A stretch of DNA of 17,976 nt from Escherichia coli (GTDB taxonomy: Bacteria; Pseudomonadota; Gammaproteobacteria; Enterobacterales; Enterobacteriaceae): NCBI RefSeq assembly GCF_003334385.1, contig NZ_QOWN01000062.1; one strand, written 5' to 3'. This document shows, one piece after another, positions 1,415-15,314 of the stretch (the first letter of the stretch is position 1; each line of letters starts with the position of its first letter). The position numbers and the translations under genes were made by a program. The notes beneath the pieces were generated by a model. That model did not search any database and had not been told where the DNA came from. It saw only the letters and a program-made list of their open reading frames with translations.

Positions 1415-1472
1415 AAAAAGGGCGGCAGAGCAGTCACGGAGTAAAACTGATACCGCCAAACGTCACCAGAAA
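1415..1472 (-). ncRNA. dicF: DicF small RNA (ftsZ-targeting antisense sRNA) with its 3' hairpin and U-run
   Basis: Reverse complement of 1415-1472 reads TTTCTGGTGACGTTTGGCGGTATCAGTTTTACTCCGTGACTGCTCTGCCGCCCTTTTT, matching DicF as I recall it, ending in a GC-rich hairpin (GGCGG...CCGCC) plus T-run. Lies between the ydfC position and dicB as in the dicB operon. Confidence 0.9.
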
Positions 1473-2655: not shown

Positions 2656-3063
2656 TTATTGATGCTTGTTGCGTTTGCGAGCCTCTAATAGCTCGGTGAA
2701 CAGGCGATTAAAATTCTCAACGCGGGCGCGGAGTTCGCTGAGTTGTGCTTGTTGCTCTGATTTAGGAAGTGCGCGATACAAACGCAGCATCTCTAACTCA
2801 TCTTCCGATAAGTCTAAGGCACTATCGAGTGAAACAGGGGGAGCTGGTGTTTTGTCCTCGTCGCCAAACAGTATCCAAGTTGGTGAACATTGCAATACCT
2901 CGGCGAGGCGATGCAAATTTTGCCCGCGCGGGGCTGTATGGTCACTTTCCCATAATGAAATTGATGAGCCAGATACGCCAGCAGCTTTGCTTAAACCGTT
3001 TTGACTTAAGCCTACCTGCTTACGTCTTTCTCTAATGCGTTGACCTAAAGTTTTCTCGTTCAT
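2656..3063 (-). CDS. dicA: DicA-like HTH (XRE-family) repressor, 135 aa
   Basis: Internal Met of track ORF 2656..3114 gives MNEKTLGQRIRERRKQVGLSQNGLSKAAGVSGSSISLWE...VLQCSPTWILFGDEDK...; the VLQCSPTWILFGDEDK block and C-terminus match DicA as I recall it. Divergent from the Cro-like gene. Confidence 0.85.
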   Translation of the reverse strand: MNEKTLGQRIRERRKQVGLSQNGLSKAAGVSGSSISLWESDHTAPRGQNLHRLAEVLQCSPTWILFGDEDKTPAPPVSLDSALDLSEDELEMLRLYRALPKSEQQAQLSELRARVENFNRLFTELLEARKRNKHQ

Positions 3064-3140: not shown

Positions 3141-3368
3141 ATGTTTAAATCAGACGTAATTAATTTTTACGGTACGAAAGCCAAAGTAGCGAAAGCTGCT
3201 GGCGTTGACCCATCTGCTGTTTCTCAATGGCAAGAGCTGGTTCCTGAAGGTCGCGCGATGCGTCTACAGGAGGCATCTGGCGGCGAGCTTCTGTATGATC
3301 CCAAGGTTTATGACGAATATCGTAAGACGAAGCGGGCGGGGCGGTTGAACAATGAAAATCACTCCTGA
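3141..3368 (+). CDS. dicC: DicC-like (Cro-type) regulator, 75 aa
   Basis: ATG at 3141 with GGAGGTG Shine-Dalgarno. MFKSDVINFYGTKAKVAKAAGVDPSAVSQWQ...EGRAMRLQEASGGELLYDPKVYDEYRKTKRAGRLNNENHS resembles DicC. Divergent from the repressor. Confidence 0.8.
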   Translation: MFKSDVINFYGTKAKVAKAAGVDPSAVSQWQELVPEGRAMRLQEASGGELLYDPKVYDEYRKTKRAGRLNNENHS

Positions 3369-3873
3369 ACAGGCTCGTGAGGCTCTGGATGCCTGGATAT
3401 GTCGACCAGGAATGACACAGGAGCAGGCGACGATATTAATCACTGAAGCATTCTGGGCTTTGAAAGAGCGCCCGAACATCGATGTTCAGCGTGTCACATA
3501 TGAAGGTGGCGCGATTGATCAGCGAGCGCTTGGCGTTAATCGAGTGAAGATATTTGAACGCTGGAAGGCTATCGACACCAGGGATAAGCGTGAAAAGTTC
3601 ACGGCGCTAGTGCCTGCAATTATGGAGGCTATCCGGATTAATGATTTCAGGTTGTATCGTGAAATTACTGACGGAAAAAGCATCACGTGCATGATCGCCG
3701 GGTTAAACAAAGAATATGGCGATGTGGTGGAGTCCGGACTGCTTTTTGCTGATCCTGCCGTAGTGGATCGTGAAACTGACGAACTTATAGAAAAAGCAAT
3801 TGCTTTCAAACTTGCGTATCGACAGCAATACCAACAAAAAGCTGGATGGAATTATGAGCCTTCTTTTTGCTGA
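3352..3873 (+). CDS. Hypothetical 173-aa protein at the CII position (possibly YdaT-like); function not recognised
   Basis: Track ORF; ATG overlaps the dicC-like 3' end by 17 nt, suggesting translational coupling. Family assignment is a guess from gene position. Confidence 0.55.
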   Translation: MKITPEQAREALDAWICRPGMTQEQATILITEAFWALKERPNIDVQRVTYEGGAIDQRALGVNRVKIFERWKAIDTRDKREKFTALVPAIMEAIRINDFRLYREITDGKSITCMIAGLNKEYGDVVESGLLFADPAVVDRETDELIEKAIAFKLAYRQQYQQKAGWNYEPSFC

Positions 3874-4819
3874 ACGCCCACTGGTTATAAACACGCAGCT
3901 GGCAATGAAAATTGGCTTAAACGAAGCCATTGTTTTGCAACAACTGCACTACTGGTTGAGAGATACCAACTCCGGCATGGAATGTGATGGTGTTCGCTGG
4001 ATTTATAACACAACGGAACAATGGCTGGAACAGTTCCCATTCTGGTCAGAGTCAACGTTAAAGCGCGCGTTTGCAAGTCTGAAAACGCTGGGGCTTTTGC
4101 GTTGTGAAAAGCTCAATAAATCAAAGCGCGATATGACCAATTTCTACACGATCAACTATGGGTGCGAGCTTTTAGATGGTGGCAAATTGAGCGAATCCAT
4201 CGGTTCAAAATGCGCCGCTCCATCAGGTCAAAATGACACGATGGAAGAGGTCAAAATGAAACGCTCCATTGGTTCAAAACGACCCAATGTCATCGGGTCA
4301 AAATGGCCTGATGATCTTACAGAGAATACAACAGAGATTACTACAGAGAATAAAAACACTTTTCGTCCGGAAGCTTCGCAACCGGACCCGCAGACGACTG
4401 AACAGGATTTTTTAACCCGGAACTCCGACGCGGTTGTGTTTAGTGCGAAAAAACGCCAGTGGGGTAGCAGGGAGGATTTGGCGTGTGCGCAGTGGATCTG
4501 GGGGCGGATCGTGGGTCTCTACGAACAGGCAGCCAGTGATGATGGCGAGATCATGCGACCAAAAGAGCCTAACTGGACTGCCTGGGCCAATGACGTGCGC
4601 ACAATGCGGATGCTGGATGGCAGAAGCCACAGACAAATTTGCGAAATGTTTGGTCGGGTTCAGCGAGATCCATTCTGGGTAAAAAACATCATGAGCCCGT
4701 CAAAGCTCCGCGAAAAATGGGACGAACTGGTCATCCGCCTGGGACGTTCACCTGTACAGCGTTGTGTTAATCATATTTCTGAACCGGATACAGAAATTCC
4801 GCCTGGTTTCAGAGGATAA
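3854..4819 (+). CDS. Phage replication initiator / replisome-organizer protein (lambda O-like role), 321 aa from the ATG at 3854
   Basis: Track ORF 3800..4819; preferred start at 3854 (MSLLFAERPLVINTQLAMKIGLNEAIVLQQLHYWL, an HTH-like N-terminus). The gene contains five iteron repeats at 4196-4305, as ori-lambda lies inside O. Confidence 0.7.
   Translation: MSLLFAERPLVINTQLAMKIGLNEAIVLQQLHYWLRDTNSGMECDGVRWIYNTTEQWLEQFPFWSESTLKRAFASLKTLGLLRCEKLNKSKRDMTNFYTINYGCELLDGGKLSESIGSKCAAPSGQNDTMEEVKMKRSIGSKRPNVIGSKWPDDLTENTTEITTENKNTFRPEASQPDPQTTEQDFLTRNSDAVVFSAKKRQWGSREDLACAQWIWGRIVGLYEQAASDDGEIMRPKEPNWTAWANDVRTMRMLDGRSHRQICEMFGRVQRDPFWVKNIMSPSKLREKWDELVIRLGRSPVQRCVNHISEPDTEIPPGFRG
4196..4305 (+). repeat. 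Five direct iterons (core GGT(T)CAAAA(T/C)G) at 22-25 bp spacing inside the replication gene; candidate replication origin
   Basis: Core starts at 4202, 4226, 4249, 4271 and 4296, with flanks TCCATCGGTTCAAAATG, TCCATCAGGTCAAAATG, GAGGTCAAAATG, TCCATTGGTTCAAAACG and GTCATCGGGTCAAAATG. Followed at 4320-4356 by three ACAGAGA(A/T)TA repeats in an A-rich stretch. Confidence 0.6.
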
Positions 4820-4859
4820 GTGTTGATTTCAGGTCATGAGGTAATTTTAAGGGGGACTT

Positions 4860-5282
4860 GTGGCAAAAGTTTTTACACAAGAAGAGCGGGAAAAAATTAA
4901 ATGGCAGGTGGTGGAACTCGTGCGCCAGAGCGGCCGTGAGACGTTACGGCAACTGGAAGCTAAAACAGGTGCGACTAGATATCTGATGAGCGTTCTTGCC
5001 AGAGAGCTGGTAGCCAGTGGCGATGTATACAACTCCGGCTACGGGTTATTCCCCTCTGAACAGGCGCGTAAGGACTGGCAAAACGCCCGCAAAAAACTCT
5101 CGAGGGCAAAGGTGAAGAAACCTGCTTTGGTTGATCCGGACCTTATCTGGTCATCACCTGACGGAGAAATACGTCGCTACGACAGTCGCCTAAACATAAT
5201 CTGTCGCGAGTGCCGGAAGAGCGAAGTTATGCAGCGCATACTGGCTTTCTATCAGGGTAATTTTCAGGACGTGGCGCAGTGA
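4860..5282 (+). CDS. Hypothetical 140-aa protein (GTG start), downstream of the replication initiator
   Basis: Track ORF preceded by AAGGGGGA Shine-Dalgarno. Its stop overlaps the GTG start of the following methyltransferase ORF (GTGA). No recognisable motif. Confidence 0.5.
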   Translation: MAKVFTQEEREKIKWQVVELVRQSGRETLRQLEAKTGATRYLMSVLARELVASGDVYNSGYGLFPSEQARKDWQNARKKLSRAKVKKPALVDPDLIWSSPDGEIRRYDSRLNIICRECRKSEVMQRILAFYQGNFQDVAQ

Positions 5283-5725
5283 GTGCACCGGCAACCATTC
5301 TTGATATGTGCTGTGGCAGCCGCATGTTCTGGTTCGATAAGTCTGACGAACGGGCGATATTCAGCGATATCAGAAAAGAAGGATACACATTACGCAATGG
5401 GAGACGCTTGATTATCAGCCCTGACATTATCGCAGATTTTCGTGCATTATCATTTGCAGACGCATCTTTTTCGATGGTTGTATTAGACCCTCCGCATCTT
5501 GAGAGTGTTGGTGATAACGCCTGGATGGGAAAGAAATATGGACGGCTGAATAAAGATGCCTGGCGTGATGATTCGCGACAGAGATTTAAAGAAGCCTTTC
5601 GGGTGTTGAGGCCGCACGGCGTTCTGATTTTTTAATGGAATGAAACGCAAATACCGGTAAGCCAGATTCTGGCACTGACAGACAGAAAACCTGTTATCTG
5701 TCAACGAACAGGGAAAAAACGATAA
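5279..5725 (+). pseudogene. DNA amino-methyltransferase (motif I DMCCGS, motif IV DPPH) interrupted by an in-frame TAA at 5633-5635
   Basis: Track ORF 5279..5635 carries VVLDPPHLE, the D-P-P-[YFWH] catalytic motif of N6A/N4C methyltransferases, and a SAM-binding-like ILDMCCGS. The same frame continues after the TAA for 29 codons (WNETQIPVSQILALTDRKPVICQRTGKKR) to a TAA at 5723-5725. Confidence 0.5.
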
Positions 5726-6967: not shown

Positions 6968-7301
6968 ATACAGCGAACTCCATTGGTTTAGTTGGATATT
7001 TACTGTGCTGGACAAAAACGGTTTGCGGGGAAATCTTAGTTAAGTAGAATGACTGCGGGTGCTTGAGGCTATCTGCCTCGGGCATGGACACCAACGGCAG
7101 ATAGAGAAAAGCCCCAGTTAACATTACGCGTCCTGCAAGACGCTTAACATTAATCTGAGGCCAATTTCATGCTAGACACATGTAGGTTAGCCTCTTACGT
7201 GCCGAAAGGCACGGAGAAGCAGGCTATTGTTAACACCAAGCTGTAATGTCCCCTTTGAACCATTCTAAAATGTCCCCAGACAATTCTCTGGGGGATTTTT
7301 C

Positions 7302-8615
7302 ATGATCAAAGAGACTGTTACGATGAGTCATAAGGAACTCCACCGACTTCAGATTATTCAGGAACAAGCTGCGGCACGCATTGGCATTTCTATTCGGCAG
7401 GTTAAACGTCTGGTGCAACGGTATAGAAATGAAGGGCCTTCTGGTCTGGTTTCCCACCGACGTGGAAAGCGTCCTAATAATTCCTTTTCTACTGAATTCA
7501 GAGCAACAGTAATTTCACTCCTCAAAGGCCGTTACGCTGATTTTGGACCTACGTTTGCGTGCGAAAAATTGCGCGAGATACACGGTTTATCTTTATCCGT
7601 TGAAACTCTCAGAAAGTGGATGATAGAAGAGGGGTTATGGCGTGAACGCCGTCGTAAAATTGCCCGTATATATCAACGCCGCATGCGACGACCATCTTAC
7701 GGTGAACTGATCCAGATTGATGGCTCACCTCATGACTGGTTTGAAAATCGAGGCCCCAGATGTACACTGATCGTTTTCATTGATGATGCCACCAGTGCGT
7801 TGATGGCGTTGCGTTTTGTGCCTGCTGAAACAACCCGGGCTTACATGGAAACCCTCCGGGGTTACCTTAATGATCATGGCGTACCGCTCGCTCTCTACTC
7901 TGATAGACACAGTATATTCAGGGTAAATAACCCAGAGCGGGAAGGTGAGCTGACCCAGTTCACTCGTGCGATAAAGACACTGGGCATCGAGCCAATCCAT
8001 GCCAACAGCCCGCAGGCAAAAGGGCGGGTAGAGCGCGCCAATCAGACACTACAGGACAGGCTGGTCAAAGAAATGCGGCTTCAGAATATCAGTGATATTG
8101 AAACAGCAAATGCATGGTTGCCGACCTTTATTGAAGCCTATAACAACCGGTTCGCTACGTCGCCTCGTACTACTGATAATGCTCATCTTGATGTGCACCA
8201 TTCTGAAGAGGAACTGGGTTATATCTTCAGCCTACAGGCGAAGCGCGTTCTGTCTAAAAATCTCACTTTCCAGTACAAAAGCAGTGCGTTTCAGGTACGC
8301 AGTGAGGGCCGGGGATATCGACTTAGGCATTCGGTTGTTACTGTATGCGAGAACTTTGACGGTGAAATTAACGTTCTGTATGACGGGAAAGCGCTGGGCT
8401 GGGAAAAGTATGTTGATGGCCCGGAGCCTATACCACTGGATGATGAAAAGAGTGTCCATGAACGAGTGGATAATGCCCGTATTGATTTACGCTCAAAATA
8501 CTATGTTAAACCTAAAGCTGACCATCCCTGGCTTACGCGCCGAACGCAAAGTCATCAGCAAGTTAAGCCCCCGAAGTTACCTAAAAAGAAGCCTGATCCC
8601 GATAAAAAAGATTGA
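7302..8615 (+). CDS. IS-element DDE transposase (integrase-core/rve type with N-terminal HTH), 437 aa; family uncertain (IS481-like or ISNCY-like)
   Basis: Track ORF with HTH-like N-terminus (IGISIRQVKRLVQRY) and candidate DDE residues in IQIDGSPHDW, IVFIDDATSA and GRVERANQTLQD. Ends of the element could not be defined. Confidence 0.8.
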   Translation: MIKETVTMSHKELHRLQIIQEQAAARIGISIRQVKRLVQRYRNEGPSGLVSHRRGKRPNNSFSTEFRATVISLLKGRYADFGPTFACEKLREIHGLSLSVETLRKWMIEEGLWRERRRKIARIYQRRMRRPSYGELIQIDGSPHDWFENRGPRCTLIVFIDDATSALMALRFVPAETTRAYMETLRGYLNDHGVPLALYSDRHSIFRVNNPEREGELTQFTRAIKTLGIEPIHANSPQAKGRVERANQTLQDRLVKEMRLQNISDIETANAWLPTFIEAYNNRFATSPRTTDNAHLDVHHSEEELGYIFSLQAKRVLSKNLTFQYKSSAFQVRSEGRGYRLRHSVVTVCENFDGEINVLYDGKALGWEKYVDGPEPIPLDDEKSVHERVDNARIDLRSKYYVKPKADHPWLTRRTQSHQQVKPPKLPKKKPDPDKKD

Positions 8616-11826: not shown

Positions 11827-12126
11827 AAAAATTCCTTAATACTGATAACTTGGCGCACTATACACACGTTCCTGAAGAAAGCTATAGTTTTTTGATGGGG
11901 TTGAAGATGGCTGGATGTCTAAAATAAACATTGCTTCATATGTTCAACTATGCGTTAATGATTGCGTCGGTTTGAAGAACAGACGATATACGAAGTAGTT
12001 TACTAAAGCAGTTCTCATTTCAGGTGTTATTCACTTATTCCTTCTTTGAGTCTCTCCAATTAAGTACGAAGTCGTTTCTGTTATGCAAACCATTTATGCC
12101 GAAAGGCTCAAGTTAAGGAATGTAGA

Positions 12127-12342
12127 ATGTCAAATAAAATGACTGGTTTAGTAAAATGGTTTAACGCTGATAAAGGTTTCGGCTTTATTTCTCCTGTTGA
12201 TGGTAGTAAAGATGTGTTTGTGCATTTTTCTGCGATTCAGAATGATAATTATCGAACCTTATTTGAAGGTCAAAAGGTTACCTTCTCTATAGAGAGTGGT
12301 GCTAAAGGTCCTGCAGCAGCAAATGTCATCATTACTGATTAA
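12127..12342 (+). CDS. cspB: Cold-shock protein CspB (71 aa)
   Basis: [71 protein letters not shown]. Long 5' UTR containing a TGCCGAAAGGC box, as in the csp family. Confidence 0.9.
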
Positions 12343-12624
12343 AATTCATCGCTCGTCTGTATACGATAACGAAGAAGGCTGATGCCTGAGTAGAGATACG
12401 GACAGAGTAGTGAATATTGGATCTCTTTAATAAAAAGTAAGGAGGTCCAATACATGAAACAATGGCCAGCATATTTGGCAAAATCTTAATCAGGAAAAGT
12501 ATGCTAACCATTGTGGTGAAGTGCAGGTTTGCTGCATGAATAGTTTTACAGCAGAAGCTAACTGCTGGCATGGCAAAACAAAGTGCGTAAGTGGATGACT
12601 CCCACAAAAAGCACCACAATCTCA

Positions 12625-14651: not shown

Positions 14652-15013
14652 GGTAATATTAAATCGGAACATTTACATCGCGGAATGTAAAATTTAAATA
14701 AAAAGGACTCTTCCATGAGCCAAAATTCCTGAAATCTTAAGGGTAAGATAAAAGGTCTTAATCAGAATGACACGTTTTATTAATAAATAAAGCTATTCTT
14801 TCATTGCTGTGTTTTTCTTTACAAAAGTAATCCTTGCTATGGGTGGTTAATCATGCGTTAATGGTGTTCTGGTTTGTTACAAATTTATCTGAAGCAGTCA
14901 TTGTTATAATTTTATTATTTGTACCTCTTGAGATTTCCTTGTTGGTTTTTCTCTCTGATATTTTTTTTCGGACCATTCTGCCCAAGGGCTAATTTCTTCA
15001 AAAGGTAATAATT

Positions 15014-15226
15014 ATGTCTAACAAAATGACTGGTTTAGTGAAATGGTTTAACCCTGAAAAAGGTTTTGGTTTCATCACGCCGAAAGATGGCAGCAAAGAT
15101 GTGTTTGTCCATTTCTCAGCAATTCAGAGCAACGATTTCAAAACATTAACTGAGAATCAGGAAGTTGAATTTGGTATTGAGAACGGACCTAAAGGTCCTG
15201 CCGCTGTTCATGTAGTGGCGCTTTGA
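15014..15226 (+). CDS. cspI: Cold-shock protein CspI (70 aa)
   Basis: [70 protein letters not shown]. Confidence 0.88.
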
Positions 15227-15314
15227 GGTAGACAATATTACAAACCATATTCACTTTAGATGCCCGTGTTGTCATGGTTCCCAGTATAGAACATCATCTT
15301 TTGATGTTTCTGAC

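Follow-up and report, generated by a model that had tools for sequence, protein, structure and literature searches.

The segment at positions 4175-4387 of the Escherichia coli DNA analysed here (17,976 nucleotides (nt) of contig NZ_QOWN01000062.1; the whole stretch is called the window) is very probably the replication origin of a lambdoid prophage. It appears to be of the ori-lambda type and to lie within its own initiator gene, in the part that encodes a predicted disordered linker. Three elements follow one another in this segment: an array of direct repeats (iterons), an A-rich element containing three CAGAGAWTAC-type units, and an inverted repeat (Table 1). The gene was assigned by a profile search to PHROG 391, 'replication initiation O-like' (E = 4.5e-91). 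A Pfam scan of the encoded protein yielded no match, the sole match in an NCBIfam scan was a short DnaT tail, and in a sequence search of the PDB it was again the DnaT tail alone that matched.

The first-pass annotation of the window, made from the letters alone, had noted five direct repeats inside the initiator gene, and these were found to be present far beyond chance. The motif TCAAAAYG starts at positions 4205, 4228, 4251, 4274, and 4298 on the plus strand, with spacings of 23, 23, 23, and 24 nt, and Tandem Repeats Finder (TRF) reported a 23-nt period at the array. By itself, the number of TCAAAAYG matches in the whole window is unremarkable, six compared to 2.9 expected; only their clustering is unusual. 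The five copies are contained within 110 nt; in 2000 first-order Markov simulations of the window, never more than two copies were obtained, and an analytic estimate places the chance of such a cluster at about 7e-10. The related motif GGTYAAAAYG matches three times in the window, with 0.24 matches expected, and all three are located within the array. Outside the array, a single match to TCAAAAYG was detected, at 2997-3004 on the minus strand. Every unit is a 23-nt near-palindrome with the dyad axis on the same A. A sixth, degenerate iteron copy, GCAAATTG at 4182, is present 23 nt upstream of iteron 1, and this position is occupied by a good copy, GAGGTCAAAGTGA, in mEp460_4F5 and in Klebsiella relatives. 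Together, the five iterons and the degenerate sixth extend from 4175 to 4313, and they start at codons 110, 118, 125, 133, 141, and 149 of the gene.

The array is also found in related phages. It is located directly after the conserved N-terminal domain (N-domain) in mEp460_4F5, which shows 78% nucleotide identity, and in Klebsiella phages, whose N-domain is 71% identical. It is kept in Hafnia phage yong2 (N-domain 49% identical), where the core is altered to GGACAAATTGTCC, in Staphylococcus phage 42E (46%; core GGACAAAATG), and in Bacillus phage proCM3 (40%; core GTCAAAATGA). Among 101 unique related loci, which were retrieved via the protein and not via the DNA, position of the array, number of iterons, the 21-24-nt spacing, and the frame pattern are conserved. 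Each locus has two to six iterons, the spacing is 21-24 nt in 383 of 384 cases, and the iterons occupy at least two reading frames in all 101 loci and all three frames in 67 of them. In the Firmicute-type loci, the arms of the iterons are lineage-specific yet complementary to each other (TATC/GATA, GCTC/GAGC, ACCC/GGGT, GATC/GATC), and the centre is constantly CAAAATG. The observed arm complementarity, 2.08 of 4, exceeded all 1000 partner shuffles (mean 1.77 +/- 0.03). Arms that covary around a constant centre in this way mark a protein with two-fold symmetry, the specificity of which drifts along with its sites.

Since 23 is not a multiple of three, the iterons fall in different reading frames, and iterons 1 to 5 of the window are read in frames 0, 2, 1, 0, and 0. 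The repeats had also been described as visible in the protein as SIGSK/VIGSK peptides. This applies to iterons 1, 4, and 5, but not to iterons 2 and 3, which are read in the other frames and specify SGQND and EVKMK. Entropies were calculated for the three codon positions in an alignment of 60 distinct gene variants from phages and IMG/VR contigs. While values of 0.23, 0.10, and 0.79 were obtained for positions 1, 2, and 3 in the N-domain, the corresponding values in the iteron zone were 0.28, 0.24, and 0.29, and the periodicity was gone. Third-position entropy, at 0.79 in the N-domain, fell to 0.18 within the cores of the iterons and to 0.07 within the CAGAGA zone. The repeats are constrained as DNA, because the iterons span three frames and the codon periodicity vanishes across the array. 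They are therefore DNA features and not peptide repeats, and conservation at the protein level only, an outcome that the annotation had named as speaking against an origin, was not what was observed.

The same data bear on the view that the repeats are nothing but a low-complexity peptide linker (SIGSK/TENT) that has no function as DNA. The segment does encode a predicted disordered linker, the three CAGAGA units of the window share one frame, in which they read TENT/TEIT/TENK, and the units are in a single frame in 89 of the 101 loci. Selection for a peptide, however, is difficult to reconcile with iterons in three frames that give unrelated peptides, and with third codon positions that are conserved as strongly as first and second ones. 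Even within the CAGAGA zone, the codons appear to be chosen for their nucleotides: Thr-Glu is written as ACA-GAG in 172 of 179 cases in enteric loci (96%) and in 62 of 76 cases in Firmicute-type loci (82%), whereas elsewhere in the same open reading frames (ORFs) this combination is used in 3 of 121 and 1 of 29 cases, respectively (2-3%). In addition, there are 12 loci among the 101 with CAGAGA units in two reading frames. Frame usage and codon choice already contradict the peptide-linker explanation, which is scarcely credible.

The second element of the proposed origin consists of the CAGAGA units. Three ACAGAGA(A/T)TA repeats had been noticed in the first-pass annotation, and the window indeed contains three copies of the motif ACAGAGAWTA and no more, at 4319, 4331, and 4343, with 0.04 matches expected. 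The units had been regarded as part of an AT-rich unwinding element. The surrounding stretch is the AT-richest part of the gene (4316-4358; GC 0.30, 2nd percentile of the gene), and its top strand is A-rich (AT skew +0.63). In Staphylococcus and Bacillus phages, however, the homologous element is GC-richer than the surrounding gene (87th-88th percentile). It is therefore the sequence that is conserved and not the richness in AT, and the element is more appropriately described as a sequence-specific repeat. The ACAGAGAATAC units of the window align with the equivalent stretch of the Hafnia, Staphylococcus, and Bacillus phages (p < 0.001). Homology of the A-rich element to the AT-rich region of lambda was also considered; the alignment was marginal (p about 0.04), and homology is not claimed. 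Among the 101 loci, one to five CAGAGA units are present, mostly three, at a spacing of 10-12 nt. The distance between the last iteron and the first CAGAGA unit is quantised in helical-turn steps, being 20/21, 31, or 42 nt. Close relatives in IMG/VR, among them L049 and L063, differ in having three, four, or five 12-nt units, as expected for slippage of a tandem repeat that stays in frame.

CAGAGA repeats were also detected next to other N-domains, and the element hardly varies where the iterons do. The Stx2a phage Stx2_14040 (L176 1054-1947) specifies a remote N-domain (hhalign E = 0.004) and contains TTTCCCGAAATGGGGAAA-type iterons and its own helicase genes, and it shares 40 nt of the CAGAGA element with the window (4313-4352) at 97.5% identity. 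A different initiator with different iterons, own helicase genes, and the shared 40 nt are likewise features of some 20 further Stx1a/Stx2a phages. When IMG/VR was searched for exact matches to two CAGAGA units 12 nt apart, at least 120 stretches were found, compared to about three expected by our own estimate. Among the matches listed (80 loci), the pair is located inside an ORF in all 80 cases and is preceded by a window-type N-domain in 52; the other 28 have different N-domains and iterons, and one of these is a high-GC phage. Again among the matches listed, a helix motif, [QE]xxYW, is encoded upstream in 76 of 77 ORFs with a CAGAGA pair, but only in 8 of 185 control ORFs. The version of this motif in the window is LQQLHYW. 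Initiators of the SfII type, on the other hand, have another N-domain and the same C-terminal domain (C-domain) as mEp460_4F5; their genes contain GTCAAAATCTGAC repeats spaced by 15 nt and no CAGAGA units. In Shigella phage SfII (L006 2641-2716) and in L009, these repeats are 13-nt palindromes that recur every 15 nt in frame, specifying the peptides SKSDP/SKSDA, and a DnaT-like tail is present.

From these comparisons, the occurrence of the CAGAGA element follows one N-domain superfamily; it does not follow the C-domain or the host, nor does it depend on whether a loader is present. This distribution suggests that the element may be recognised by a conserved part of the N-domain or by something that the N-domain recruits. 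We propose to group such loci as CAGAGA-repeat origins of the [QE]xxYW winged-helix initiator superfamily, characterised by a [QE]xxYW N-domain, an iteron array, and at least two CAGAGAnTAC units at 10-12 nt, in this order within a single ORF; the window ORF has all three. Searches of full-text literature with the CAGAGA motif and the iteron strings retrieved only unrelated primers, a result that holds for the open-access literature. A more far-reaching proposal would be that CAGAGAnTAC is not a generic melting zone but a second sequence-specific origin element, which is read by a conserved face of this very large winged-helix superfamily or by recruited priming or helicase-loading machinery and which marks the exact site of opening or loading in the manner of DnaA-trios. 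The element would have persisted in phages of Firmicutes and of enterobacteria alike, with iterons free to diverge, and the enterobacterial O-only branch would have replaced lambda P by a copy of the DnaT tail that connects the initiator to the helicase-loading pathway of the host. We consider this combination possible rather than probable.

Conservation of the block might, alternatively, reflect a role as a recombination linker for the exchange of N- and C-domain modules, maintained by repeated transfer and not by function. N-domain and origin are indeed found in combination with different C-domains, the breakpoint being just after the CAGAGA element, and the 40 nt shared with the Stx phages at 97.5% identity lie amid genes that are otherwise unalignable. 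The element persists, however, across Firmicute, enteric, and high-GC phages with flanks that cannot be aligned, which makes recent exchange implausible. Copy number, the 10-12-nt spacing, and the phased distance to the iterons are kept, and a linker would require neither palindromic nor phased repeats. Maintenance by transfer alone is very improbable, and a function of the repeat within the origin is the preferred interpretation.

The third element is the inverted repeat. At this position, a perfect stem of at least 6 bp was found in 73% of 112 unique related loci and in 12% of control coding windows. The sequences of these stems vary by lineage.

On the protein side, the AlphaFold2 (AF2) model of the initiator is confident for residues 1-111 and 174-299, while residues 112-173 have values of the predicted local distance difference test (pLDDT) below 50 and are predicted to be disordered. 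Residues 112-173 are exactly the segment encoded by the iterons and the CAGAGA units. In the model, the origin would thus coincide with a flexible linker between the DNA-binding N-domain and the C-domain. When the N-domain was compared to the PDB by Foldseek, winged-helix proteins were the top matches, including the N-domain of plasmid RepA and a Rep-DNA complex. All of these matches are weak (best E = 0.015, none <= 0.001), and the N-domain is accordingly termed a putative winged helix. A profile search with the N-domain detected 15,065 cluster representatives (clusters at 50% identity), though the window protein itself is without a Pfam family. The best-scoring representatives (e.g. P0121-P0134) are proteins of 390-880 amino acids with two copies of the domain. 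The C-domain is of a more familiar kind: amino acids 170-294 are 36% identical to the O proteins of lambda, phage 21, and H-19B/Stx phages (tblastn, E = 2e-16). The tblastn matches to lambda-type O begin only at amino acid 170, leaving the N-domain unmatched.

Several observations have to be set against the assignment of an origin to this segment. Good palindromes, with 8 of 11 complementary arm positions, are found for only three of the five iterons (2, 4, and 5). A promoter/terminator scan revealed no promoter-like site at the array, and a search for DnaA boxes revealed no enrichment and no site within the origin. The N-domain has no detectable homology to the N-domain of lambda O (hhalign probability 0.1%), and since it also lacks a Pfam match, the parallel to lambda is architectural for the N-terminal half. 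Downstream of the initiator gene (window 4820-5635), no helicase-loader gene of the P, DnaC, or DnaB type is present. Lambdoid modules with O only have not been studied according to PMC12315714. Finally, the loci compared are phylogenetically related, and the counts from the 101 loci overstate independent support.

It is also conceivable that the array comprises initiator sites for control, serving autoregulation, handcuffing/copy control, or as a decoy that titrates the initiator of related phages, and that the origin is located elsewhere. Iterons in plasmids have roles in both initiation and control. An exclusion role would be selectable, the array is part of a prophage in a third of the complete E. 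coli genomes, and in phage SPP1 a further origin is located outside gene 38 (PMC6316719). On the other hand, the window contains the full tripartite layout of iterons, A-rich element, and palindrome at the codons of the proven lambda origin, and no further iteron cluster, the match at 2997-3004 being the only one outside the array. For mere titration, helical phasing between iterons and CAGAGA units would be unnecessary. Control sites with an origin elsewhere are considered improbable, and the segment 4175-4387 is retained as the origin.

The layout without a loader gene is shared by mEp460_4F5, SfII, and the Klebsiella and Hafnia relatives (L003, L004, L005, L006). Among 314 lambdoid phages, 34 carry an O homologue only, and their replication is not understood (PMC12315714, 2025). 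The window initiator terminates with a copy of the extreme C-terminus of the host protein DnaT (Table 1). Both the tail and DnaT residues 160-179 form the end of their proteins, and the NCBIfam match mentioned above is to DnaT as well. A C-terminus of the type ...GFR[GST] is present in 82 of 85 enteric-type loci, whatever C-domain they encode, but in none of 79 Firmicute-type loci, and it is absent in lambda O. The DnaT C-terminal motif also occurs in DopC, an O-derived protein (PMC5509034). In two papers on the structure of DnaT, a role of residues 160-179 is not stated. We hypothesise that the DnaT-like tail substitutes for lambda P by mimicry.

Initiation may be envisaged as follows. The five or six palindromic iterons of 23 nt would be occupied by dimers of the winged-helix N-domain; specificity would come from the arms, and the constant CAAAATG A-tract centres at 23-nt phase would favour bending into an O-some-like complex. 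The resulting stress would open the adjacent purine-rich element with its three CAGAGAWTAC units. The CAGAGAWTAC sequence itself would be recognised, most likely via a conserved face of the same N-domain superfamily, and with the inverted repeat just downstream the origin would be tripartite, as it is in lambda. More speculatively, the initiator might bring the host helicase by means of its own lambda-O-like C-domain and the tail copying DnaT, since there is no gene for a P-type loader.

Table 1. Features of the prophage segment, with the proposed origin and its initiator gene
Feature	Position	Strand	Remarks
O-like replication initiator gene, 321 aa plus stop	3854..4819	+	intact ORF in cro/cII rightward operon
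N-terminal winged-helix domain (putative), aa 1-111, presumed iteron-binding, LQQLHYW helix motif	3854..4186	+	AF2 pLDDT about 90
Iteron 0, degenerate, GATGGTGGCAAATTGAGCGAATC	4175..4197	+	in register 23 nt upstream of iteron 1
Iteron 1, CATCGGTTCAAAATGCGCCGCTC	4198..4220	+	frame 0, peptide SIGSK
Iteron 2, CATCAGGTCAAAATGACACGATG	4221..4243	+	near-palindrome, 8/11 arm pairs; frame 2, peptide SGQND
Iteron 3, GAAGAGGTCAAAATGAAACGCTC	4244..4266	+	frame 1, peptide EVKMK
Iteron 4, CATTGGTTCAAAACGACCCAATG	4267..4289	+	8/11 arm pairs; frame 0, peptide SIGSK
Iteron 5, CATCGGGTCAAAATGGCCTGATG	4291..4313	+	8/11 arm pairs; frame 0, peptide VIGSK
Three 12-nt CAGAGAWTAC-type units	4319..4354	+	presumed unwinding or loading element, inside A-rich stretch 4316-4359
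Inverted repeat GTCCGG-N11-CCGGAC	4365..4387		directly after A-rich element
C-terminal domain, aa 174-299, homologous to lambda O C-domain	4373..4750	+	tblastn; AF2 confident
C-terminal tail QRCVNHISEPDTEIPPGFRG, copy of host DnaT extreme C-terminus	4757..4816	+	14/20 identical to E. coli DnaT 160-179
DicF RNA	1420-1471	-	Rfam
sok antitoxin RNA (hok/sok-type locus)	7057-7228	+	Rfam
cspA-type thermoregulator leaders, two	11966-12358 and 14868-15253	+	Rfam

The window represents a lambdoid prophage with an immunity region of the Qin/DicA-DicC type. A repressor gene and a Cro-like gene are followed by a CII-like gene (3352-3873) and the O-like initiator gene (3854-4819), and 3' of the latter a Ren-like/LygF gene and a methyltransferase fragment are located. 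The methyltransferase ORF (5279-5635) specifies 118 amino acids that cover only positions 52-165 of the 229-position PHROG profile, and it is probably a truncated gene. An ORF for an ISNCY-family transposase (7302-8615, 437 amino acids, E = 7e-137) is inserted in the prophage, and Escherichia phage PhiR42_1, a deposited complete phage genome, likewise carries annotated transposase genes at the matching place. DicF, sok, and the cspA-type leaders are typical cargo for Qin-like prophages; within 3800-4900, the Rfam scan gave no match. Over the O gene region (3800-4900, 1.1 kb), identity is 99.9% to PhiR42_1 and 96.9% to mEp460_ev081, and it is 98.4% to HannyBb, an isolated E. coli phage that came from bird faeces. 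The ori segments of window and PhiR42_1 are identical, and the initiator proteins differ by a single substitution, S104C, upstream of the repeat array. Of 5426 complete E. coli genomes, 1849 contain 80% or more of the initiator gene, mostly under the annotation 'hypothetical protein'.

These relationships are relevant to the question of whether the module still functions in this copy. The prophage could be cryptic, its origin being one by descent that is now dead and no longer competent for replication. Qin is cryptic in E. coli K-12, and the window has a Qin-like immunity region with DicF; the transposase insertion, the fragmentary methyltransferase ORF, the absence of a loader gene, and the S104C substitution relative to phage copies would all be in keeping with decay. 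Yet the O ORF is intact, PhiR42_1, a complete phage genome, has the identical ori segment and carries transposase genes at the corresponding place, and a module without loader is the norm for the class, as illustrated by the 34 O-only phages among 314 (PMC12315714). An inactivated origin is therefore regarded as unlikely, though it merits consideration. Replication competence of this copy is plausible, because the ORF is intact and because PhiR42_1 shares the ori segment without a difference and has transposase genes too; the 98.4% and 96.9% identity of the gene region in HannyBb and mEp460_ev081 points in the same direction.

The arrangement of iterons within an initiator gene is textbook knowledge and will not surprise a specialist. 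Out of the ordinary are the sequence-specific CAGAGA repeat shared across phyla and initiator subtypes, the covarying arms around a constant centre, and the module without loader but with a DnaT-like tail. The initiator gene belongs to the O-only lambdoid modules, whose mechanism is not yet understood (PMC12315714), and mapping the origin to 4175-4387 supplies cis elements and a DnaT-like tail motif for this question. If confirmed as a recognised sequence, CAGAGAnTAC would be a marker of the replication origin for thousands of temperate phages, with Gram-positive as well as Gram-negative hosts, and the repeat could reveal how winged-helix phage initiators position DNA opening.

Among known systems, ori-lambda is the closest counterpart. 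It, too, is contained in an initiator gene that belongs to the rightward early operon, and the four annotated lambda iterons start at O codons 118, 125, 133, and 141, which are codons at which iterons start in the window. Like those of the window, the lambda iterons are near-palindromes with the same kind of A-tract centre (TCAAAACGA), and spacings are 20-24 nt when lambda and window are compared. The next element is the AT-richest of the gene in both cases (2nd percentile in the window, 1st in lambda); it is purine-rich on the coding strand and on the promoter-distal side. An inverted repeat follows the purine-rich stretch in the window as in lambda, where a palindrome occupies the equivalent place, and in both the origin encodes the linker of the protein. 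With the same codons, the AT-richest element next to the iterons, the inverted repeat thereafter, and a C-domain with 36% identity, the ori-lambda arrangement suggested in the first-pass annotation is well supported. The differences concern the N-domain, which is not detectably related in sequence, the number of iterons, five or six of 23 nt in the window and four to six in lambdoid/Stx origins, and the A-rich part, which is a regular CAGAGAWTAC repeat in the window and aligns only marginally with lambda. Moreover, no P gene is located 3' of the window initiator, and the DnaT-like tail is absent from lambda O. The origin of lambda and of Stx phages has been established by experiment, and it is formed by iterons and an AT-rich tract located midway in O (PMC7466680).

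Comparable arrangements exist in phages of Gram-positive hosts. In SPP1, oriL lies in gene 38, the gene of the replisome organiser G38P, and consists of direct repeats together with an AT-rich unwinding element (PMC6316719). For the organiser gene of 80alpha, complementation in trans failed, which suggests a cis-acting origin (PMC5499656). A putative origin is annotated in gene 20 of 80alpha (L297 2675-2900) at the same relative place as the array of the window. In addition, Firmicute relatives of the window N-domain (L114, L118, L125, and others) have a downstream hairpin, ATATTGTCGGGCAACCCGAC, and the C-domain in common with 80alpha, but 80alpha has another N-domain, and its TACTAATAAT-type repeats replace CAGAGA. 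N-domains and iterons of both SPP1 and 80alpha differ from those of the window, and both encode a helicase loader, SPP1 also a helicase. Exchangeable halves seem to be the building blocks of origins of this kind.

The best structural matches to the modelled N-domain are initiators of RepA_N-type staphylococcal plasmids (PDB 4pql, 4pt7, 5kbj), with a template modelling (TM) score of about 0.5 on the target. RepA_N plasmids also carry their iterons within the rep gene. They differ from the window in being plasmids and not phages, the Foldseek E-values are weak (0.015-0.3), and neither sequence nor Pfam gives a match. Membership of the window initiator in RepA_N by sequence was rejected, as there is no Pfam match and the resemblance in fold is weak. 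The DnaA-trios and 13-mers are a specific repeat in the unwinding element of oriC next to the initiator boxes. They offer a functional analogy only, a short periodic motif beside binding sites at fixed helical phase; the proteins are unrelated, and the period is 3 nt compared to 10-12 nt for CAGAGA. DopC, finally, resembles the window initiator in being derived from O and in carrying the DnaT C-terminal motif. It is chromosomally encoded and pairs with the P-like DopE, and its gene lacks iterons, whereas in the window the tail belongs to a phage initiator with iterons and without P.

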